DNA of 64,000 bases from Bacilli bacterium (GTDB lineage: Bacteria > Bacillota_I > Bacilli_A > RF39 > UBA660), in assembly GCA_017934595.1 (NCBI GenBank), contig JAGBJG010000008.1, positions 65,687-129,686 on the forward strand, read 5' to 3'. Both the position numbers and the translations under genes were made by a program. Positions 3,070-47,097 of this stretch are shown piece by piece. The notes below the pieces were generated by a model, which made no database searches, was not told where the DNA came from, and worked only from the letters and a program-made list of their open reading frames with translations. Numbering within the stretch: position 1 is the stretch's first letter; the number at the start of each line of letters is the position of its first letter.

Positions 3070-4470
3070 ATGAACTTACCAAATATGTTGGACGCGAAAA
3101 AAAGAAATAGTGAAGAAACTAAACATATATATTTAGATGATAAAGTATCTGATATGTATAAAAATAAAAAATACTTTATAAGAACTTATGGTTGTCAGAT
3201 GAATGTACATGATAGTGAAGAGATAGCTTATATCTTAGAAAGTGTTGGAATGACTCCTATAGATACTATAGAAGGTGCAGATGTAGTAGTTTTAAATACA
3301 TGTGCCATAAGAGAAAACGCTCATGATAAGTTATATGGATTTTTAGGTAGATGTAAACATGAAAAAGAAACAAATAATCATGATTTAATTATCTGTATAT
3401 GTGGATGTATGCCTCAAGAAGAGTCTGTGGCTAATGATTTAATTAAAAATCATCCATATGTAGATATAGTATTTGGTACTCATAATATTCATGAACTTAC
3501 TGATATGCTACTTAATAAAATGGATAACCAAAATATTAAAGTATATTCTATGCAAGGTGAAGTATTTGAAAATGTTAAATATAAAAGAGATTCTAATATT
3601 AAAGCTTGGGTAGATATCCAATACGGTTGTGATAAATTCTGTACTTACTGCATAGTTCCATATACAAGAGGTAAACAAAGAAGCAGATATTCAACTGAAA
3701 TAGTAAAAGAAGTAGAATGTCTTAAAAAAGAAGGATATAAAGAAGTAACGTTACTTGGTCAAAATGTTAATGCATATGGTAAAGATATAGATGATATATC
3801 ATTTGCTGAATTATTAGCTAAAGTTGCTGATACAGGAATAGATAGAGTTAGATTTGTTACATCACATCCTTGGGATTTTACAGATGATATGATAGAAGTT
3901 ATAAGTGAACGTGATAATATCATGCCTTATATTCATCTACCATTACAATCAGGTTCTTCTAAAATATTAAAATTAATGGGTAGAAGATATACTAAAGAAG
4001 AATATTTAACTTTATATAATAATATTAAAGCTGCTATGCCAGAATGTGCTATTACAACAGATATTATTGTAGGTTTCCCAGGTGAGACTGAAGAAGATTT
4101 TAACGAGACTTTAGATGTAGTTAATGCTTGTAAATATGATTCTGCATTCACGTTTATTTATTCACCAAGAGAAGGTACACCTGCTGCTAAAATGGAACAA
4201 CTTGATAAAAAAGTATGTGAAGATAGATTACATAAATTAAATGAGTTGATAAATAAATACGCTAAAGAAGCTAATGATAAATATTTAGATAAAGTTGTAC
4301 CGGTATTAATTGAAGGATTAAGTGAAAAAAATGAATCTTTAATGATGGGTTATACTGATACAATGAAATTAGTAAATGTAAAAGGTGATTTATCTAATGT
4401 TGGTAAAATCGTTAATGTACATATAACTGATGTGAAAACTTGGAGTATGGATGGAGAAATAGTTGAATAA
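3070..4470 (+). CDS. miaB: tRNA-i6A37 methylthiotransferase MiaB (radical SAM)
   Basis: N-terminal MTTase motif YFIRTYGCQMNVHDSE, radical SAM CxxxCxxC (CTYCIVP), TRAM-like C-terminus; RBS GGTGA. Confidence 0.9.
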   Translation: MNLPNMLDAKKRNSEETKHIYLDDKVSDMYKNKKYFIRTYGCQMNVHDSEEIAYILESVGMTPIDTIEGADVVVLNTCAIRENAHDKLYGFLGRCKHEKETNNHDLIICICGCMPQEESVANDLIKNHPYVDIVFGTHNIHELTDMLLNKMDNQNIKVYSMQGEVFENVKYKRDSNIKAWVDIQYGCDKFCTYCIVPYTRGKQRSRYSTEIVKEVECLKKEGYKEVTLLGQNVNAYGKDIDDISFAELLAKVADTGIDRVRFVTSHPWDFTDDMIEVISERDNIMPYIHLPLQSGSSKILKLMGRRYTKEEYLTLYNNIKAAMPECAITTDIIVGFPGETEEDFNETLDVVNACKYDSAFTFIYSPREGTPAAKMEQLDKKVCEDRLHKLNELINKYAKEANDKYLDKVVPVLIEGLSEKNESLMMGYTDTMKLVNVKGDLSNVGKIVNVHITDVKTWSMDGEIVE

Positions 4471-4535: not shown

Positions 4536-5348
4536 ATGAAACTAGAAATTATTAATATGTATAGTTATAATACTAATATTGTTAAAAATAATAGTTTTAA
4601 ATATATAAGACCTATCATAGAAGATACTATAGAAAATAAAAAGAAATATGGTATACCAACACTACCTATTATCTATGATTTAGAAAAGGTAGTAGAAGAT
4701 GTTGAAGTAGTTAATAATACAACTAATTTTTTGGAAAATAAATTAGTATCACTTACATTTGATGATGGACCTACTAAATATACAAATGAATTATTAAAAG
4801 TACTTGAAAGAAATCATAGTAGGGCAACATTCTTTATCTTAGGTAATAAGATTAGGGGTAATGAGGAAGCTATTAAAAATATTCGTTCTAAGGGTAACGA
4901 AATAGGTATAAATGGATATTCACATAAACCATTTACTAATATGAGTTTAGAAGATGTAGATGCTGAAATTGATAATACACTTGATATGTTGAAGAACTTA
5001 GGTGTTAAACCATCTAATATAGTAAGACCACCATATGGTAAATTAAACGGATCTATTAAGATAAGATCTAAATCGCCATTTGTACTTTGGAATATAGATA
5101 CAAGTGATGTACGTGATAAAGAAGCAATTAGAAATAAAATTATAAGTAATATTCAGCCTGGTTCAATTATAAAATTACATGATACATCTATAGATACGAT
5201 TGAAGCATTAGAAGAAGTATTACCTGAATTAATTAAAGACGGATATAGATTTGTTACTGTAGGTGAAATGAATAAAATATATGAGAATGATTTAGTTCCA
5301 GGTAAGGTATATGGTAAGGTATATGATAAATTAAAAGAAGTAGCTTAA
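4536..5348 (+). CDS. polysaccharide deacetylase (NodB-homology domain)
   Basis: TFDDGP motif and the HS..H and IKLHD motifs; RBS GAGGTGATGAT. Confidence 0.8.
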   Translation: MKLEIINMYSYNTNIVKNNSFKYIRPIIEDTIENKKKYGIPTLPIIYDLEKVVEDVEVVNNTTNFLENKLVSLTFDDGPTKYTNELLKVLERNHSRATFFILGNKIRGNEEAIKNIRSKGNEIGINGYSHKPFTNMSLEDVDAEIDNTLDMLKNLGVKPSNIVRPPYGKLNGSIKIRSKSPFVLWNIDTSDVRDKEAIRNKIISNIQPGSIIKLHDTSIDTIEALEEVLPELIKDGYRFVTVGEMNKIYENDLVPGKVYGKVYDKLKEVA

Positions 5349-5425
5349 AACACATTTAATAATGTGTTTTTTCTTGTAAAAAATACTATATTTTGATATA
5401 ATTTTTATAGAATAGGGTGAGGCTA

Positions 5426-7183
5426 ATGTTCGGTAAGATAATTTATATTAGTGATAACACAGCGCATATATCAATACCAGAAGGTACTCCTGTAGCTACT
5501 AACTTGATGAATATGCATGTTGTATTTGAAGATGATAATAAAAAAATATTAGGAGAAGTAGAAGATGTATCTAAAGAAGTTATTAAGGTTACTTTTTTGG
5601 GTGAAATTACAGAAAGAGGTTTTATTGGTGGAGTAATTAGAAAACCAACATTAGAAGCTAAATTAAGAATTATAAATAAAGATGAATTAGCTATGTTAGT
5701 TGGTGTACCTGGTAAAGGTAGATTTAGTGTTGGTGTATCACCTTTGTATGATGATTATCCTATTATGGCTAATGTTAATGATATGTTTAGTAATCATATG
5801 GCTATATTTGGTAACTCTGGTTCTGGTAAATCATGTGGCGTAGCTAGATTATTGCAAAATGTATTTACTGATCCAGCATTACTTCCATATAAAGCTAATT
5901 TCTTTATTTTTGATGCTTATGGTGAATATCATAACTCATTTAGAAATATTAATAGTATTAATCCAAATTATAATTTTAAATATTATACAACTAATAAATA
6001 TGACACAATGGGTGAAAAATTGAGAATTCCATTATGGCTTTTAGATACAGAGGATTTAGCGATACTTTTAAATGTTACTGAACATTCACAAATACCAATT
6101 GTAGAAAGAATGTTAAAATTAGTTCAAATATTTGCTTTAAGCAGTGAAATGTCTACTAAATATAAAAATCATTTAATAGCTAAAGCTATTATGGCAATAT
6201 TATTTACTAATCAAACATCCGCGTCTAAAAGAAATGATATATTTGCTATTCTAGAAACTTGTTCAACTAATGAATTTAATATGGAAGCTCCTGTACAAGG
6301 ACTTGGTTATGTTCGTAAGTTTAGAGATTGTTTCATTATAGATACAGCAGGTAACTTTACTGAAAGTATCTTAGTAACTGAATATGTAACATCATTTATA
6401 GATGAAGCATTAGATAAATATGAACCAACAGAAATAAATTATTATACATTAGAAGATTTAGAAAAAGCATTAAACTTCACATTAATATCTGAAGGATTAC
6501 TTAGAAATGATATAGCGTATGCATCTGCTATTACATTAAAAGTTAGATTACATTCATTATTAATTAGTGAATATAGTCAGTATTTTAAAGTACCTGAATT
6601 TATTACAAGAGAAAAATATATTGCTTCATTAGTTACAAAAGACGCTCATAAAGCTCAAATAGTTAACTTTAACTTAGAAGATGTAGATGATTGGTTTGCT
6701 AAATTTGTTACTAAGACTTTTGCTAAAATGTTATTTAATTTTGCTAAGAGTTTAAATAACCGTGCTACAATACCATTCCATATCTTCTTAGAAGAAGCAC
6801 ACAGATATGTTCAAAATGATAATGACTTATATTTACTAGGTTATAATATCTTTGAACGTGTTGCTAAGGAAGGTAGAAAATATGGTGTTATTCTAGATTT
6901 AATATCACAAAGACCAGTTGAACTTTCTGAAACAGTTATTTCACAAGTTTCTAACTTTATGATATTTAAATTAACACATCCAAGAGATATTGATTATGTT
7001 AAGAAGATGTTACCTAATATTTCAGCTGACATAGTTGAAAAACAAAAGAGCTTACAACCAGGTACATGTGTTGCCTTTGGACCAGCATTTAAAATACCAA
7101 TGATTATTAAAATGAAAATGCCAGATCCAGCTCCACAATCTTCAAACTGTGATATTATAAATACATGGACAGTACATCAATAG
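5426..7183 (+). CDS. HerA-like P-loop ATPase (HAS-barrel N-terminus, Walker A GNSGSGKS, Walker B LEEAHRY, SQRP motif)
   Basis: Motifs match the HerA/FtsK-type ATPase family. It is paralogous to 17490-19259. Confidence 0.65.
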   Translation: MFGKIIYISDNTAHISIPEGTPVATNLMNMHVVFEDDNKKILGEVEDVSKEVIKVTFLGEITERGFIGGVIRKPTLEAKLRIINKDELAMLVGVPGKGRFSVGVSPLYDDYPIMANVNDMFSNHMAIFGNSGSGKSCGVARLLQNVFTDPALLPYKANFFIFDAYGEYHNSFRNINSINPNYNFKYYTTNKYDTMGEKLRIPLWLLDTEDLAILLNVTEHSQIPIVERMLKLVQIFALSSEMSTKYKNHLIAKAIMAILFTNQTSASKRNDIFAILETCSTNEFNMEAPVQGLGYVRKFRDCFIIDTAGNFTESILVTEYVTSFIDEALDKYEPTEINYYTLEDLEKALNFTLISEGLLRNDIAYASAITLKVRLHSLLISEYSQYFKVPEFITREKYIASLVTKDAHKAQIVNFNLEDVDDWFAKFVTKTFAKMLFNFAKSLNNRATIPFHIFLEEAHRYVQNDNDLYLLGYNIFERVAKEGRKYGVILDLISQRPVELSETVISQVSNFMIFKLTHPRDIDYVKKMLPNISADIVEKQKSLQPGTCVAFGPAFKIPMIIKMKMPDPAPQSSNCDIINTWTVHQ

Positions 7184-17489: not shown

Positions 17490-19259
17490 ATGTTAGGGAA
17501 TATAATAGGGATTGAAGAGAACTTAGTATTATTAAAACTTACAGATACTAATAGTGATAATTTATCTAATATGTATGTAACACTAGAAAATAGTGAAAAT
17601 ATATGTGTAGGTGAAATAGGTAATATAAAAGATGGTATTGCTTATATCAATTTATTAGGTGAAATTATTGATAGTAAATTTGTATTTGGTGTCATTAGAA
17701 AGCCATTAATGAATTCAAATGTTAGATTGATACCAACTGAAAAGGTACCTGCTATTATTTCATGCGATAATTCTGATGAATCTAAATATTTATATTTAGG
17801 TAAAAGTCCAATATATAAAGATGTAGATATTAATATACCAATTAACAAATTCTTTAGTAATCACTTTGCTATATTTGGATCAACTGGATCTGGTAAATCA
17901 TGTTCAGTATCAAGAATATTTCAAAATTTATATAGCAAGAGAAATGCGATTCCATATAAATCAACTATATTAATATTTGATGCATATGGTGAGTATCATC
18001 AAGCATTTTCTAAATTAAGTGAAGTTGCTCCAGAAATATCTTTTAAATCTTATACCACTAATACTAAATTTAGTGATACAGATATTATTAAAATACCTTT
18101 ATGGTTACTTGGAGTAGATGATTTAGCTTTATTATTAGGAGTTGAATCACATAACCAAATTCCAATTGTAGAAAAAGCTTTAAAGATAGTATCTATCTTT
18201 GGTAGAGAAGAATCTGAAGTTATTAAAAGTAAAAATGATATCATTGCCAGAGCTATTTTAGATATCTTAACTAGTGGTAGATCTGCATCTCAAATAAGAG
18301 ATCAAGTTGTATCAGTTTTATCTTACTATAACACAAAAGAATTAAATCTTGAAACACAAATATTCCAACCAGGTTATACAAGAACATTAAAACAATGTTT
18401 ACTTATTGATGCTAATGGCAAGATAAGAGAAATGGAATTATTAATGAATTTCATGAACTCTTTCTTAGATGATTCATTAGAATTAAATTTACCTGATGGA
18501 ACATTTGCTTATACATTAAAAGATTTATGTGATGCGATGGATTTTGCATTAATATCTGAAGGTGTATTAAAGAGTGATAAAATATTTGATGAATCTAATA
18601 TTTTAAAAGTAAGATTACATTCACTACTTAATAGTAATGAAGCAAGATATTTTGACGTTCCTGATTATATAACAAGAGATCAATATATCAGAAATTTACT
18701 TACAGCTACTAATGGTAGAAAAGCTCAAATAATTAACTTTAATATTAACTATGTTGATGATAGATTAGCTAAGACTATAACAAAGATATATTCAAAAATG
18801 TTCTTTGATTATGCTAAACAAATGGATGATAGAGGTTCCTTACCTTTCCATATTGTCTTAGAAGAAGCACATAGATATGTTCAAAATGATAATGATAATT
18901 TCTTATTAGGTTACAATATCTTTGAACGTATTACAAAAGAGGGTAGAAAGTATGGAGTTTTATTAGGATTAATATCTCAAAGACCTTCTGAACTTTCTGA
19001 AACTGCTTTATCTCAATGTAATAACTTCTTAATATTTAAGATGATTCATCCAAATGATATTGGATATATTAGAGAAATGGTTCCAAATATTACTGATGAA
19101 ATAGTTAAGAAAATTAAAATCTTACAACCAGGTACATGTATGGCATTTGGTCTTGCATTTAAAGTTCCGACAATTATTAAATTTGAAATGCCAAATCCAT
19201 CACCTGCGTCTAACTCAGCTAATATAGAAGAAAAATGGTTTATTAAAAAGAATGCGTGA
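17490..19259 (+). CDS. HerA-like P-loop ATPase, second paralog
   Basis: GSTGSGKS, LEEAHRYVQNDND, ISQRPSELSE motifs. The C-terminal ~150 aa are highly similar to 5426-7183. Confidence 0.65.
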   Translation: MLGNIIGIEENLVLLKLTDTNSDNLSNMYVTLENSENICVGEIGNIKDGIAYINLLGEIIDSKFVFGVIRKPLMNSNVRLIPTEKVPAIISCDNSDESKYLYLGKSPIYKDVDINIPINKFFSNHFAIFGSTGSGKSCSVSRIFQNLYSKRNAIPYKSTILIFDAYGEYHQAFSKLSEVAPEISFKSYTTNTKFSDTDIIKIPLWLLGVDDLALLLGVESHNQIPIVEKALKIVSIFGREESEVIKSKNDIIARAILDILTSGRSASQIRDQVVSVLSYYNTKELNLETQIFQPGYTRTLKQCLLIDANGKIREMELLMNFMNSFLDDSLELNLPDGTFAYTLKDLCDAMDFALISEGVLKSDKIFDESNILKVRLHSLLNSNEARYFDVPDYITRDQYIRNLLTATNGRKAQIINFNINYVDDRLAKTITKIYSKMFFDYAKQMDDRGSLPFHIVLEEAHRYVQNDNDNFLLGYNIFERITKEGRKYGVLLGLISQRPSELSETALSQCNNFLIFKMIHPNDIGYIREMVPNITDEIVKKIKILQPGTCMAFGLAFKVPTIIKFEMPNPSPASNSANIEEKWFIKKNA

Positions 19260-19273
19260 GTAGCATTCTTTCT

Positions 19274-19301
19274 TGCATTAATATAAATTTTAATATATAA
19301 T
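19274..19301 (+). promoter_or_regulatory. promoter TTGCAT, 16-nt spacer, TATAAT driving the antitoxin-like sRNA
   Basis: -35 at 19274-19279; -10 at 19296-19301. Confidence 0.45.
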
Positions 19302-19307
19302 GTATAT

Positions 19308-19422
19308 AGATGAGGGAAACTTCATAAAATAAAAAAGGAGTTACTTAACTTCGCGTGTTAGGTTACTACCTTAGTTAGGTTTTGCCTAGCCGTTTATGTT
19401 AAATGGTTAGGCGCTTTTTATT
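19308..19422 (+). ncRNA. candidate ~115-nt sRNA (type I antitoxin-like), copy 1
   Basis: Own promoter; 5' hairpin GAGG-GAAA-CUUC; AAAAAGGAG with no start codon after it; terminator GCCUAGCC...GGUUAGGC plus U-tract at 19384-19422. 5' motif shared with 43928-44034. Confidence 0.45.
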
Positions 19423-19490
19423 ATTGTTAATAAATATATTATTAATAATAATATGATAACTAATTTTAGAAATTTATTATCTTTCTTCAT
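19407..19490 (-). CDS. 27-aa hydrophobic peptide MKKDNKFLKLVIILLLIIYLLTIIKSA (type I toxin-like)
   Basis: Strong RBS AAGGAGG 8 nt before the ATG. Single TM helix with charged ends. Its 3' end overlaps the sRNA terminator. Not in the ORF track (too short). Confidence 0.5.
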   Translation of the reverse strand: MKKDNKFLKLVIILLLIIYLLTIIKSA

Positions 19491-19570
19491 AGTATCAACC
19501 TCCTTTTATATATCATTGGTGATGATAAGAAAAAGAGGTAGCAACCTAACAGTCTTTCACTCCTATAGCA

Positions 19571-19599
19571 ATTGTAACACGAAACATTGTTTGTGTAAA
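19571..19599 (-). promoter_or_regulatory. promoter TTTACA, 17-nt spacer, TACAAT for the small toxin-like peptide mRNA
   Basis: Read on the minus strand. It gives a ~75-nt 5'UTR containing ACCUCUUUUU, which is complementary to the SD AAAAGGAGGU. Confidence 0.4.
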
Positions 19600-19614
19600 T
19601 GTAAAAAAGAAATG

Positions 19615-42456: not shown

Positions 42457-42713
42457 AAATAGTAAAGATAAACGCTTTATGGTGTAGTGGTTGTCTTTAT
42501 ATGAAAAAAGTATGGAAAGAAGTATTAAATATTTATCCAGATTTAGAAATAGAAGAATATGATTTAGATATGGATGAAGAAATGGCTAAATCATATAATC
42601 CTGGAGATACTCTTCCTGTCGCTATTTTCTATAAAGGTGATACTGAATATAAAAGATTATGTGGTGAACATAATAAAGATGAAATTATAGACATAATTAA
42701 GGAGTGCATATGA
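42453..42713 (+). CDS. small thioredoxin-like protein (WCSGC)
   Basis: CxxC motif in a thioredoxin-like context; RBS AAGGAG. Confidence 0.6.
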   Translation: MKIVKINALWCSGCLYMKKVWKEVLNIYPDLEIEEYDLDMDEEMAKSYNPGDTLPVAIFYKGDTEYKRLCGEHNKDEIIDIIKECI

Positions 42714-43891
42714 AAAAAATATATTGGTTAATAATAAGTTTATTAATATTATTACCTATAGGTGTGGAAGCTAAAAAAGATGTATATTTATTCCATGATT
42801 ATACATGTATGCATTGTAAAGCTGAAATAGAATATTTAAATAGTGTTAAAGATGAATATGATCTAGATCTACATCTATATGAAATAGGTGATAGAACTGC
42901 TTCATATTATAATGATAATGTAGATTTATTTAAGAAAATAAGTGATAAATTAGGAATTAATAAAAGTAATAAATTTCCGTTTACTATTATTGGAGATAGA
43001 TACTATATAGGTTTTGATGATAGTACAGAAAAATCTATGGATAATTTATTAAAAGAATTTGATAATAGTATAAATGTATTTGAGAAAGTAGTTAATGATG
43101 AAGATGTTTCAGATATTAATATGAAGTATGGGGAATTTAATGAAATAAAAATATTTGGTCATACCATAAATATTAATAAGATGCCGCTTCCTATAATAGC
43201 TACAGTAATAGGTTTTATAGATGGCTTTAATCCATGTGCGATGTGGGTATTAATATTCTTAATAACAATGCTTATGAATATGAAGAACAAAAAAAGAATG
43301 TGGACTTTAGGTATAACATTCTTAGTTACTTCTGCATTTGTATATTTGCTTATTATGCTTGCGTGGTTAACTCTTATAGGTAGCTTATCAACTATTACAT
43401 GGTTTAGATTAGGAATAGCTTTAGTTGCTTTAATAGGTGGATTAGTTAACTTAAATAGCTTCAGAAAGAGTCTTAAAAAAGATGATGGTTGTGAAGTAGT
43501 AGATGAAAAAAAGAGAAAGAAAATTATAACTCGTATTAAGAAAATAGTAACTGAAAAATCATTTATATTAGCTTTAATAGGAGTTATGGCATTAGCTATA
43601 TCAGTAAATGTAATTGAACTTGCATGCTCTGCAGGACTTCCTATGGCATTTACTCAAATATTAGCGATTAATACTTTATCTACATTTGAATATATGATTA
43701 ATATATTAATATATATATTCTTCTTCTTAATCGACGATATTATCGTATTTGTAATAGCTATGTTAACATTGAATGTAACAGGTATATCTACTAAGTATAC
43801 TAAGTATTCTCATTTAGTAGGTGGTATTATAATGGTTATAATAGCAGTACTTATGGTATTTAAACCTGAATGGTTGATGTTTAATATTTAG
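42710..43891 (+). CDS. thiol-disulfide oxidoreductase: N-terminal thioredoxin-like domain (CMHC) fused to a CcdA/DsbD-like membrane domain
   Basis: Signal peptide, YTCMHCK CxxC, then about 6 TM with GFNPCAMW (DsbD/CcdA family cysteine). Confidence 0.6.
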   Translation: MKKIYWLIISLLILLPIGVEAKKDVYLFHDYTCMHCKAEIEYLNSVKDEYDLDLHLYEIGDRTASYYNDNVDLFKKISDKLGINKSNKFPFTIIGDRYYIGFDDSTEKSMDNLLKEFDNSINVFEKVVNDEDVSDINMKYGEFNEIKIFGHTININKMPLPIIATVIGFIDGFNPCAMWVLIFLITMLMNMKNKKRMWTLGITFLVTSAFVYLLIMLAWLTLIGSLSTITWFRLGIALVALIGGLVNLNSFRKSLKKDDGCEVVDEKKRKKIITRIKKIVTEKSFILALIGVMALAISVNVIELACSAGLPMAFTQILAINTLSTFEYMINILIYIFFFLIDDIIVFVIAMLTLNVTGISTKYTKYSHLVGGIIMVIIAVLMVFKPEWLMFNI

Positions 43892-43920
43892 TTGATATAT
43901 TTAATAAAATATTATATAAT
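43892..43920 (+). promoter_or_regulatory. promoter TTGATA, 17-nt spacer, TATAAT driving sRNA copy 2
   Basis: -35 at 43892-43897; -10 at 43915-43920 (perfect). Confidence 0.5.
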
Positions 43921-43927
43921 GTATTTA

Positions 43928-44034
43928 GTGAAGGAAACTTCATACAATATAAAAAGGAGATACTCGATTTCCATAGTCGGGCATCGCCATATAGGTTTGG
44001 CCTAGTCTATGCTTAGATTAGGCATTTTTCTTTT
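43928..44034 (+). ncRNA. candidate ~107-nt sRNA (type I antitoxin-like), copy 2
   Basis: 5' hairpin GAAG-GAAA-CUUC; AAAAAGGAG with no start codon after it; 10-bp terminator stem 44000-44023 plus U-tract. 5' 35 nt ~80% identical to 19311-19345. Confidence 0.45.
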
Positions 44035-44111
44035 AATAACAGAAGCAGTAAAGCAACTGATAAAAAAAGGATAATTATTATTAGAAAAGATATTTCAGTA
44101 TCCTTCTTCAT
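44013..44111 (-). CDS. 32-aa hydrophobic peptide MKKDTEISFLIIIILFLSVALLLLLLKEKCLI (type I toxin-like)
   Basis: RBS GGAGG 9 nt upstream; single TM with a Lys-rich C-tail; 3' end overlaps the sRNA terminator. It is the internal start of the longer ORF-track entry 44013..44228. Confidence 0.5.
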   Translation of the reverse strand: MKKDTEISFLIIIILFLSVALLLLLLKEKCLI

Positions 44112-44199
44112 AATTATCAGCCTCCTTCCATTATCTAAGTAGTAAAATAAGGTAATGAAGGAATTTGGCAATGCCAAACAATCTTGTATCTCCAAAATA

Positions 44200-44228
44200 A
44201 TTATATCAAAAATATGTTCGTATATCAA
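44200..44228 (-). promoter_or_regulatory. promoter TTGATA, 17-nt spacer, TATAAT for the toxin-like peptide mRNA (minus strand)
   Basis: It gives a ~80-nt 5'UTR containing UCCUUC, complementary to the SD GAAGGA. Confidence 0.4.
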
Positions 44229-44293
44229 TTATTAAATTGATATATTTTTAATTTTAAAAAATAATGATATAATACTTCTAGTCAGGTGATACT

Positions 44294-46783: not shown

Positions 46784-46818
46784 AATAAATCTGTGATATA
46801 ATTTAAATGGTGATTATA

Positions 46819-46965
46819 ATGGAAGATAAAACATGTGGCTGCAGTGAAAATTGCACATGTGGGTGTCAAGAAGGTTCTGAATGCACTTGTAATGGTGAAT
46901 GTACATGTGGATGTGAATCAGATGAATGCACTTGTGAGGATTGTAATTGCGAAGAAAATAAATAA
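46819..46965 (+). CDS. 48-aa cysteine-rich peptide (17 Cys) MEDKTCGCSENCTCGCQEGSECTCNGECTCGCESDECTCEDCNCEENK; metallothionein-like or a modified-peptide precursor
   Basis: RBS GGTGAT 8 nt upstream; followed by two terminator hairpins (46978-46998 and 47017-47048); not in the ORF track. Confidence 0.5.
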   Translation: MEDKTCGCSENCTCGCQEGSECTCNGECTCGCESDECTCEDCNCEENK

Positions 46966-47053
46966 AAGAGTAGAAATGAAGTGAACCCCAAATAGTTCAC
47001 AAAATAAAAAAAGAGGTTAGATACATATTCTAATCTCTTTTTTTATTGACAAA

Positions 47054-47083
47054 TGTTATATGGTGTTATATACTGTTATATGT
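47054..47083 (+). promoter_or_regulatory. three tandem 10-bp repeats TGTTATATGG/TGTTATATAC/TGTTATATGT overlapping the promoter; likely the GntR (YtrA-like) operator
   Basis: Repeats lie between -35 TTGACA (47046-47051) and the RBS of the GntR gene. Confidence 0.4.
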
Positions 47084-47097
47084 AAGGAGGAATAACT

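Follow-up and report, generated by a model that had tools for sequence, protein, structure and literature searches.

Organisation of the locus

A 64,000-nt stretch of contig JAGBJG010000008.1 from a Bacilli bacterium (assembly GCA_017934595.1), referred to below as the window, carries at positions 43890-44230 of the window numbering a compact locus (locus 2) with two convergent transcription units. The plus strand is predicted to encode a small RNA (sRNA), a candidate antitoxin, and the minus strand a small hydrophobic peptide, a candidate type I toxin; a second locus of this kind (locus 1) lies in the same window. The whole analysis is computational, and the transcript ends are predicted from the sequence.

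The sRNA promoter (43892-43920, plus strand) scores 11/12 and consists of a -35 box TTGATA (43892-43897), a 17-nt spacer and a -10 box TATAAT (43915-43920). The predicted sRNA (43927-44034, plus strand) is about 108 nt long and scores 56.7 bits (E = 3e-6) with the covariance model (CM) of the family. It begins with a 5'-terminal hairpin of 6 bp with a GAAA loop (hairpin 1, GUGAAG-GAAA-CUUCAU, 43928-43943), followed by a conserved A-rich stretch with a terminal GGAG (ACAAUAUAAAAAGGAG, 43944-43959), which is near-invariant in the family alignment. Hairpin 2 of the sRNA body, GAU-A-CUCGAUU / AGUCGGG-C-AUC, occupies 43959-43985. The RNA ends in an intrinsic terminator, T1 (44000-44034), made up of a stem-loop of 10 pairs (44000-44023) and the U-tract ATTTTTCTTT; this plus-strand stem-loop is the sole terminator-like site in the locus 2 region.

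The promoter of the peptide mRNA (44200-44228, minus strand) also scores 11/12, with a -35 box TTGATA (44228-44223), a 17-nt spacer and a TG-extended -10 box TATAAT (44205-44200). The predicted transcription start site (TSS) and the alignment give a 5' leader of 82 nt (44112-44193, minus strand), which starts with GGAGAUAC and is a same-sense copy of the sRNA body. Within it, the anti-Shine-Dalgarno (anti-SD) element UUCCUUCAUUACC (44151-44163) is paired in the minimum free energy (MFE) structure with the Shine-Dalgarno (SD) region GGAAGGAGGC (44120-44129), which lies 8 nt 5' of the AUG. The open reading frame (ORF), whose start is preceded by GGAAGGAGG, runs from 44111 to 44013 and encodes the peptide MKKDTEISFLIIIILFLSVALLLLLLKEKCLI of 32 aa. 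Its stop codon (44013-44015) and last codons lie inside the T1 stem, an overlap that the original prediction for this locus had already claimed. If the mRNA reads through T1 to a second candidate terminator, T2, its full length would be about 250 nt (43941-44193). Against shuffled sequences, the fold of the sRNA reaches z = -4.9 and that of the peptide mRNA z = -3.6.

Only strong promoters were counted in the chance control, because AT-rich DNA (26% GC) is full of weak promoter-like sites; the locus 2 region has 21 sites scoring at least 9/12 where 19.7 are expected. Sites of at least 11/12 with a 17-nt spacer number 11 in the whole window, both strands included, versus an average of 3.4 and a maximum of 8 in 30 dinucleotide shuffles of the window. 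Two of these 11 sites, 336 nt apart, form the convergent pair of locus 2, and the minus strand has a share of 2/11. The promoters, sRNA, 10-bp terminator, ORF and stop codon originally described for locus 2 are all in place and above chance.

A family of related loci

The alignment of locus 1 (19262-19610) with locus 2 has a mean column identity of 79%. Between them three blocks are kept, namely the 5' ~45 nt of the sRNA together with its -10 region, the beginning of the terminator, and the SD and start of the peptide gene; the similarity stops at the two promoters. This alignment agrees with the earlier view of locus 1 as a paralogue of the same architecture. The first ~35 nt of the two sRNAs are similar as had been noted, but their identity, given as ~80%, is ~89% when counted on the alignment. 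The locus 1 sRNA (19309-19425, plus strand; fold z = -4.6) follows a promoter TTGCAT-N17-TATAAT (19273-19301). Its peptide unit (19407-19599, minus strand) has a promoter TTTACA-N17-TACAAT (19599-19571), a 74-nt leader starting with AGGAGUG and the ORF MKKDNKFLKLVIILLLIIYLLTIIKSA (19490 to 19407), with an mRNA fold of z = -5.3. The window contains exactly two family copies, loci 1 and 2, with CM scores of 77.4 and 56.7 bits.

For the census, one genome per species was scanned with the shared sRNA motif, and a metagenome scan, a profile search and a covariance model (R1) were added. Gathering the family through this motif biases it towards copies with the conserved 5' domain of the sRNA. The genome scan gave 30 loci, of which 18 with the locus arrangement were kept as members; the other 12 were discarded as chance motif matches in unrelated sequence (e.g. 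Acidobacteriota, Poribacteria, Chitinophagales). The metagenome scan gave 33 further loci, with the human gut in at least two record names, and the profile search together with R1 gave 38 sRNA copies in 44 sources. The proposal that the two loci belong to a real dispersed family is upheld by these 38 copies from motif scan and covariance-model search and by strong structural covariation. As the related copies are not independent, the p-like numbers given below are indicative only.

Inspected by eye, the scan copies have a TTGAxx-N17 promoter whose -10 box is in most cases preceded by TG and which lies at a constant distance from the 5' hairpin of the sRNA. The hairpin AUGAAG-GAAA-CUUCAU is followed by AAAAGGAG, a second hairpin, then UGUCUACC, and the terminator. 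Most scan copies have a convergent small hydrophobic ORF, and wherever the peptide side is intact this ORF comes with an SD, a promoter and a leader with an anti-SD. Some members form tandem arrays: L017 has four copies in ~1 kb (5577-6647), L003 three (5023-6020) and L014 two (880-1351). The peptides within the arrays are diverged, and some array copies are degenerate or truncated.

The contigs of the family all have 22-32% GC. The family is carried by 'Bacilli' genomes of uncultured bacteria (the record titles name rabbit, mouse and buffalo samples), 'Mycoplasma sp. CAG:611', one 'Tenericutes' and one 'Clostridia' genome; most carriers are uncultured, many are gut-derived, and common human-gut variants (the L004/L042 type) are included. 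Five contigs (L009, L021, L025, L029 and L032, from SRP287540_co1_194 and _203) are labelled Muribaculaceae, i.e., Bacteroidota, and have 27-30% GC and Firmicutes-type promoters. Muribaculaceae genomes are not known to be that AT-rich, and the label is therefore probably a binning or labelling error. Searches in mobile DNA, by blastn with the locus against annotated phages and plasmids and by scanning viral contigs for the motif, gave no matches, and no link to mobile elements could be made.

The small RNA

In the CM alignment, 95.1% of the cells are paired, and double changes occur in 20 of the 26 pairs. None of 500 shuffles reached any covariation measure, and slid 3' partners pair in only 31-48%. 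Helix 1 is 97.9% paired and has compensatory variants in diverged copies, e.g. GAAAGAAAUUUC in L017. Helices 2 and 3, which form hairpin 2, are 92-93.5% paired with double changes in 9 of 11 pairs; helix 4 (T1) is 96.4% paired, with double changes in 8 of 9 pairs and conserved U.G wobbles. An independent RNAalifold prediction on a MAFFT alignment likewise returned hairpin 1 and the terminator, with compensatory changes. The MAFFT alignment of hairpin 2 was out of register, and the CM-based alignment was used instead.

Hairpin 2 has a mean folding energy of -10.3 kcal/mol on the sRNA strand vs -6.0 kcal/mol on the complement, the sRNA strand being favoured in 27 of 32 copies. For T1 the means are -13.0 and -10.6 kcal/mol, respectively, with the sRNA strand favoured in 26 of 32 copies. 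At locus 2 itself, a 50-nt segment with hairpin 2 reaches -16.6 kcal/mol on the sRNA strand vs -12.5 kcal/mol for a longer segment of the complement. G.U pairs are frequent in hairpin 2 as well as in T1. Taken together, these comparisons indicate selection for a structured RNA on the sRNA strand itself.

No conserved ORF was found inside the sRNA at locus 1, locus 2 or in the relatives. Two coding candidates were rejected. The start of a 37-aa ORF, the TTG at 43892, falls within the -35 box, and neither locus 1 nor the relatives have this ORF; the mini-ORF AUG-AAG-GAA-ACU-UCA-UAA in hairpin 1 is not preceded by an SD, and its start is variable or missing (UUG in L003, AUA in L006).

The 5' ~32 nt of the sRNA are far more conserved than its remainder or the peptides, bearing in mind that the search motif selected for this domain. 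The original prediction proposed that the segment UGAAGGAA at the 5' end of the sRNA pairs in trans with UUCCUUCA in the toxin leader. This complementarity is present as sequence, in the form of a direct repeat of 91% identity, TAGTGAAGGAA (43926-43936) and TAATGAAGGAA (44153-44163), but the predicted duplex has a z of -1.16 vs shuffled sRNA 5' ends and is not conserved. An interaction of the sRNA 5' end with the leader or translation initiation region was rejected as a family feature, with z values from -1.7 to +0.95 vs shuffled 5' ends and sites that differ between members. Pairing of hairpin 1 (CUUCAU) with an AUGAAG start was rejected likewise, being at the level of shuffled controls and at a site that is not conserved; the match is uninformative, because any Met-Lys start gives it.

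The conserved 5' domain resembles an SD and might add a second, ribosome-directed function to the sRNA. A further-reaching explanation gives this domain its own function in trans, acting on the 30S subunit or another target via the SD-like AAAGGAG, so that the sRNA would be dual-function or mainly a trans regulator. Parallels for such an RNA would be SprF1, an antitoxin that binds ribosomes, or a stabiliser of the 5' STAB-SD type. This explanation fits the strong conservation of the 5' ~32 nt, with the motif selection just mentioned, their position outside the minimal overlap with the mRNA without significant pairing with the leader, and the persistence of sRNA-only copies. However, L007 has a second sRNA copy (3568-3669, plus strand) without hairpin 1 and the A-rich stretch, in which body and terminator are kept and the promoter sets the start directly at (U)AGAGCAUUUUAC, in the style of an mRNA leader. 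The conserved 5' domain is thus dispensable in at least one copy. Furthermore, complementarity to the U-tract of the candidate mRNA terminator accounts for the A-rich stretch equally well, and no target could be proposed. A dual-function or mainly trans-acting sRNA is therefore regarded as quite improbable.

The peptide gene

The locus 2 peptide has a hydrophobic core of ~20 residues between charged ends and is predicted to form a membrane helix, in keeping with the small (<60 aa) hydrophobic peptides of type I toxin systems. Relatives have related small ORFs at the equivalent position, and the family peptides (24-34 aa) share an N-terminal charge of the M-K/R-K-K type, a hydrophobic core and usually a C-terminal KK. 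Among related copies, the variable sites fall on codon positions 1, 2 and 3 in numbers of 11, 5 and 19, and the replacements are mostly conservative (I/V, F/I, R/K, R/H). This pattern of substitution indicates that the ORF is maintained as a coding sequence. In the members inspected the ORF ends within T1 or its U-tract; thus, the C-terminal lysine codons are the complement of the sRNA U-tract.

In 12 members, a promoter scoring 8.5-12 (at least 10 in 11 of them) sets the TSS at (A)GGAG or a similar sequence. The predicted leaders of these members are 59-82 nt long, with the SD at normal spacing. In a common human-gut subtype (L004, L030 and L011), a GUG preceded by a weak AAAGG is the apparent start of the conserved peptide (KTKTFIINVL...). 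L004 and L011 also have an AUG further upstream, which L030 lacks, so that the true start in this subtype is uncertain. An exhaustive phmmer search with the 32-aa peptide against 1.84 billion representatives gave no matches, which has little meaning for a short hydrophobic query.

In several copies the peptide side has been lost or damaged. L010, L024, L025 and L032 are sRNA-only copies, and the peptide sides of L003b and L028 are truncated. In L006 the sRNA copy (948-1053) is intact and the peptide side (~770-950) has an in-frame TAA after codon 3, MKW*KFILRVLDSICVILLITALIVAIIKKIDTD, as if the toxin had been inactivated and the antitoxin kept. Loss of the peptide with retention of the sRNA is a decay pattern typical of toxin-antitoxin (TA) loci and lends indirect support to toxicity of the peptide. 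The orphan sRNA of L010 (1127-1235, minus strand) is located just upstream of a gene starting with MEKKELHYDAFISYRHNDLDKF, which is TIR-domain-like; a link of this sRNA to a defence gene is possible.

Alternatively, the peptide could be a non-toxic small membrane protein that has a physiological function, such as a transporter regulator or stress peptide, the expression of which the sRNA only tunes. Both loci of the window are situated among housekeeping genes and not in obvious mobile DNA, and the lack of matches in phages, plasmids and viral contigs is in line with such a role. It would sit poorly with the multiple copies, tandem arrays and fast-diverging peptides, with the repeated loss or inactivation of the peptide side next to a retained sRNA, and with the multilayer repression of translation described below (SD masking and predicted fold-back), which is typical of toxins. 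No functionally linked neighbour gene is conserved, either. A non-toxic membrane protein is accordingly considered unlikely, and a toxin is the preferred reading of the peptide.

Predicted masking of the Shine-Dalgarno region

The anti-SD of the leader is positioned just 3' of the conserved UGUCUNCC. In 7 of the 12 members the SD is practically always paired (P(unpaired) = 0.00-0.03 vs ~0.3 in shuffled leaders); at locus 1, P(unpaired) is 0.00 vs 0.28 in shuffled leaders. By eye, the types of anti-SD and SD co-vary: CCACC with GGUGG in L007, L014 and L026, CCUCU with GGAGG in locus 1 and L021, and CUUCCUUC with GGAAGGAG in L017 and locus 2. At locus 2, the pairing of a leader UCCUUC with the SD, as originally proposed, appears in the MFE structure of a longer RNA, where UUCCUUC pairs with GGAAGGAGG. 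It does not stand out in the leader-only ensemble, in which the SD is unpaired with 0.31 vs 0.35 for shuffled leaders, a difference that is not significant. Across the family, folding predictions point to cis masking of the SD by the leader anti-SD, at a significant level in the 7 of 12 members mentioned.

The leader as a copy of the small RNA

Every mRNA leader repeats, in the same sense, the body of the sRNA from its own locus (GGAG, hairpin 2 and UGUCUACC) and forms an inverted repeat with it in the DNA. Examples are the arms 19356-19371 and 19536-19551 of locus 1, which are 94% identical, and the arms of 15 and 14 nt in L021 (93%). The similarity of leaders to sRNA bodies is 28.5 for cognate vs 17.4 for non-cognate combinations, a difference reached in none of 10,000 permutations. 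In most members the leader copy is without a stretch of 5-7 nt, which by our reading of the alignment would correspond to the hairpin loop. The substitutions in the leader copy are A>G (14) and C>U (5) vs G>A (3) and U>C (2). With this bias the leader stays paired, through G.U pairs, with the antisense of the sRNA, whereas the mirror-image pairing of an sRNA read-through would be broken.

The predicted duplex of the leader with the antisense of its own sRNA body has -35.6 kcal/mol vs -21.8 kcal/mol for non-cognate combinations (0 of 10,000 permutations), and the duplex of the leader with the tail at locus 2 has -35.2 kcal/mol. Pairing of the sRNA with the leader in trans yields -18.5 kcal/mol vs about -19 kcal/mol for opening both partners, i.e., no net gain. 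The cognate pairing of leader and antisense suggests that the mRNA probably reads through most of the sRNA gene, this being the sole sensible context for it. The 3' overlap of sRNA and peptide mRNA is present as originally proposed, but it is probably much longer than the ~20 nt at the stop codon. In models of full-length mRNAs, 20-30 leader:tail base pairs are predicted in 11 of 11 members, with the SD still masked.

The complement of the A-rich stretch is CUCCUUUUUAUAUUGU, directly after the complement of hairpin 2. The hairpin 2 complement and the following U-tract CUCCUUUUUAUUUUAU form the candidate mRNA terminator T2, which would place the mRNA 3' end after CUCCUUUUUAUUUU. A role as the complement of the T2 U-tract would explain why the A-rich stretch is so conserved. 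The idea of the hairpin 2 complement as a strong terminator was weakened by its mean of -6.0 kcal/mol, and it was kept only as the best candidate for the 3' end.

The inverted repeats within each locus might also come from a small non-autonomous mobile element or a recombination-prone repeat, the RNA and ORF features being incidental. The multiple, tandem and variably placed loci would agree with this origin. Yet the inverted repeats lie within the predicted transcripts and not at the ends of an element, and the similarity between the two loci of the window stops at the two promoters. The compensatory changes with strand-specific G.U pairs, the matched SD and anti-SD types and the codon-position bias argue for selection on the function of both RNA and protein. 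Neither a transposase gene nor a target-site duplication came to notice, although no systematic search for them was made. A mobile repeat is thus a very improbable source of these loci.

Proposed mechanism

Sequence and comparison establish the convergent units, the structured sRNA, the coding peptide, the masking of the SD and an overlap of at least terminator length. The core of the original prediction, a convergent sRNA and small hydrophobic peptide with type I TA architecture, is supported by the comparative data. Locus 2, like locus 1, would be a chromosomal type I TA-like module of an undescribed family, with toxin and antitoxin roles that we infer from this architecture; the probability of this reading is put at about 75%.

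In such a module, a constitutive-looking promoter would drive the ~108-nt sRNA with its 5' hairpin, A-rich GGAG stretch, hairpin 2 and T1. The convergent promoter would drive an mRNA with a leader of ~80 nt and the 32-aa single-helix membrane peptide. The mRNA would read through T1 and most of the sRNA gene and end at the hairpin 2 complement and its U-tract, which would give ~90 nt of complementarity. The sRNA would bind the 3' region of the mRNA, probably first by a loop-loop contact at T1. RNase III would then cut the duplex of sRNA and mRNA, and the mRNA would decay with its SD closed, as in bsrG/SR4 and txpA/RatA. The leader may pair with the 3' tail of its own mRNA in the style of hok tac/fbi, forming a stable store of untranslated mRNA. 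Once the sRNA is lost, the peptide would be made and the membrane damaged.

A more elaborate and tentative version of this module, which has the odds against it, makes the sRNA a same-sense mimic of the leader that competes with it for the 3' tail of the mRNA. This would amount to a three-way switch with an mRNA locked by fold-back, in which the sRNA would displace the leader, thereby producing an RNase III substrate and returning the anti-SD to the SD. The idea of an ON switch in which the tail controls unmasking of the SD was not adopted, the predicted accessibility shifting in few members only.

Several points weigh against the TA reading or parts of it. The CM alignment is fitted to the structure, and the pairing counts are somewhat inflated by this. 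Pfam and NCBIfam profiles gave only chance-level matches to the family peptides, involving unrelated membrane segments. Peptide genes without an sRNA are invisible to a census through the sRNA motif. The leader-only fold of locus 2 gives no significant masking of the SD (0.31 vs 0.35). The T2 hairpin is weak on the mRNA strand (mean -6.0 kcal/mol), which makes the mRNA 3' end and the ~90-nt overlap uncertain, and when the tail is masked the predicted accessibility of the SD is altered only in some members (L007, L008).

Genomic surroundings

Both loci of the window are surrounded by housekeeping genes. Identical contigs are present in the Logan assemblies of SRR12529204 and SRR12529154. A gene for a 589-aa HerA-like ATPase (17490-19259, plus strand; DUF87, E = 7.5e-26) ends 50 nt before the start of the locus 1 sRNA. 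The gene directly upstream of locus 2 (42704-43891, plus strand) encodes a multi-pass membrane protein of 395 aa whose N-terminal part has a thioredoxin-like segment with CxxC (no Pfam match at E <= 1e-5). This gene is preceded by a thioredoxin gene, and its stop codon abuts the -35 box of the locus 2 sRNA.

A candidate third family copy at 46980-47085 (26.6 bits, E = 0.03, in a filter-free CM search) was rejected, being without hairpin 2 and without a convergent peptide. This look-alike consists only of a hairpin, an A-run and a terminator and is found 3' of a small ORF (46807-46965, plus strand) encoding the extremely Cys-rich, metallothionein-like sequence MVIIMEDKTCGCSENCTCGCQEGSECTCNGECTCGCESDECTCEDCNCEENK of 52 aa. 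Near the end of the window, a DUF3800-I RNA (RF02969; 63553-63678, minus strand) was detected with 60.9 bits vs a gathering score of 44.2. The 11/12 promoter just upstream of it (63706, minus strand) is one of the two strong minus-strand promoters of the window.

Comparison with known systems

Rfam, which was searched for known antitoxin RNA families, gave no relevant match at the gathering score across the window, nor, for the two loci and L007, at permissive E values (E<=10 or E<=1). It holds 13 type I antitoxin families (PMC8594479). Almost no type I TA systems have been characterised in Firmicutes beyond Bacillus, Staphylococcus, Enterococcus and C. difficile, and homology searches in Clostridia outside C. 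difficile found almost no known type I toxins (PMC6563280). Type I TA systems, with their tiny peptides and unannotated RNAs, escape annotation. A covariance model and ~38 examples from very AT-rich, mostly uncultured and often gut bacteria are now to hand, and the peptides of 24-34 aa are candidate membrane-active toxins. The loci also suggest a search rule, namely convergent strong promoters and a terminator whose U-tract encodes the C-terminal lysines of the peptide.

In Gram-positive type I families, the antisense RNA lies on the 3' side and overlaps the end of the ORF, as in TxpA/RatA, BsrG/SR4, YonT and SprG/SprF (PMC8594479); in the inspected members of the new family the stop codon is likewise inside T1 or its U-tract. 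The SD of bsrG is partly masked in cis, the terminator loop makes the first contact, and SR4 promotes decay and extends the masking of the SD (PMC3834814). RNase III silences such type I toxins (PMC3531473). Like locus 2, bsrG/SR4 and txpA/RatA of B. subtilis have convergent RNAs, a 3' overlap that includes the ORF end and a small hydrophobic peptide. Unlike them, the new family has no similarity in RNA or peptide sequence or profile, its peptides are shorter (24-34 aa), and its overlap length is one that we infer. We know of no same-sense copy of the sRNA body in the mRNA leader of a bsrG/SR4- or txpA/RatA-type system.

The par system (fst/RNA II) of the Enterococcus plasmid pAD1 also has convergent RNAs that share the terminator region and a hydrophobic toxin of ~30 aa. 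Its 5' direct repeats DRa/DRb, which cover the start of toxin translation, mirror the idea of additional 5' complementarity in the original prediction. In the new family, pairing through 5' direct repeats is neither significant nor conserved, and the antisense RNA overlaps the end of the ORF, whereas in Fst/RNAII it does not and the interaction takes place outside the overlap (PMC8594479).

The type I TA systems of C. difficile comprise small hydrophobic toxins with charged ends and antisense antitoxins in multiple chromosomal copies (PMC5961336, PMC6563280). CD2517.1/RCd8 and CD0956.2/RCd10 share with the new family the low-GC Firmicutes host, the small hydrophobic peptides and the multiple copies. 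The C. difficile systems are linked to CRISPR arrays or prophages (PMC5961336, PMC7699646), unlike the new family, which is set apart from them by this and by the lack of an Rfam match.

In hok, a 5' element pairs with the mRNA 3' end (tac/fbi), an upstream anti-SD masks the SD, and the full-length mRNA is inert (PMC9841398). Comparable fold-back control of the mRNA has been reported for aapA1/IsoA1 (PMC5416894). The new family would be similar to both in its predicted leader:tail helix of 20-30 bp combined with anti-SD:SD pairing in 11 of 11 members, a likeness that depends on the predicted 3' end. It differs from them in the target of the antisense RNA: Sok and IsoA act on the processed mRNA, pairing in its 5' or ORF region, whereas the sRNA of the new family is complementary to the predicted 3' tail and mimics the leader. 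Antisense targeting of the 5' leader, as in hok/Sok, is not found in the new family, its sRNA having the same sense as the leader. Moreover, hok/Sok and aapA1/IsoA1 have Gram-negative hosts, and the peptides of the new family have no similarity to Hok or AapA.

By sequence and architecture, the loci belong to a new family that would work like the Gram-positive 3'-overlap type I systems and is a member of none of them by sequence. Its unusual parts are the mimicry between leader and sRNA and the predicted fold-back. To our knowledge, the logic of a switch in which the sRNA competes with the leader has not been described for type I systems. The three-way switch, if true, would provide the first case of a type I toxin under fold-back control from Gram-positive-type bacteria. 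If confirmed, the design of mimicry and fold-back would join the logic of the Gram-negative hok and aapA systems to the 3'-overlap architecture of the Gram-positive ones.

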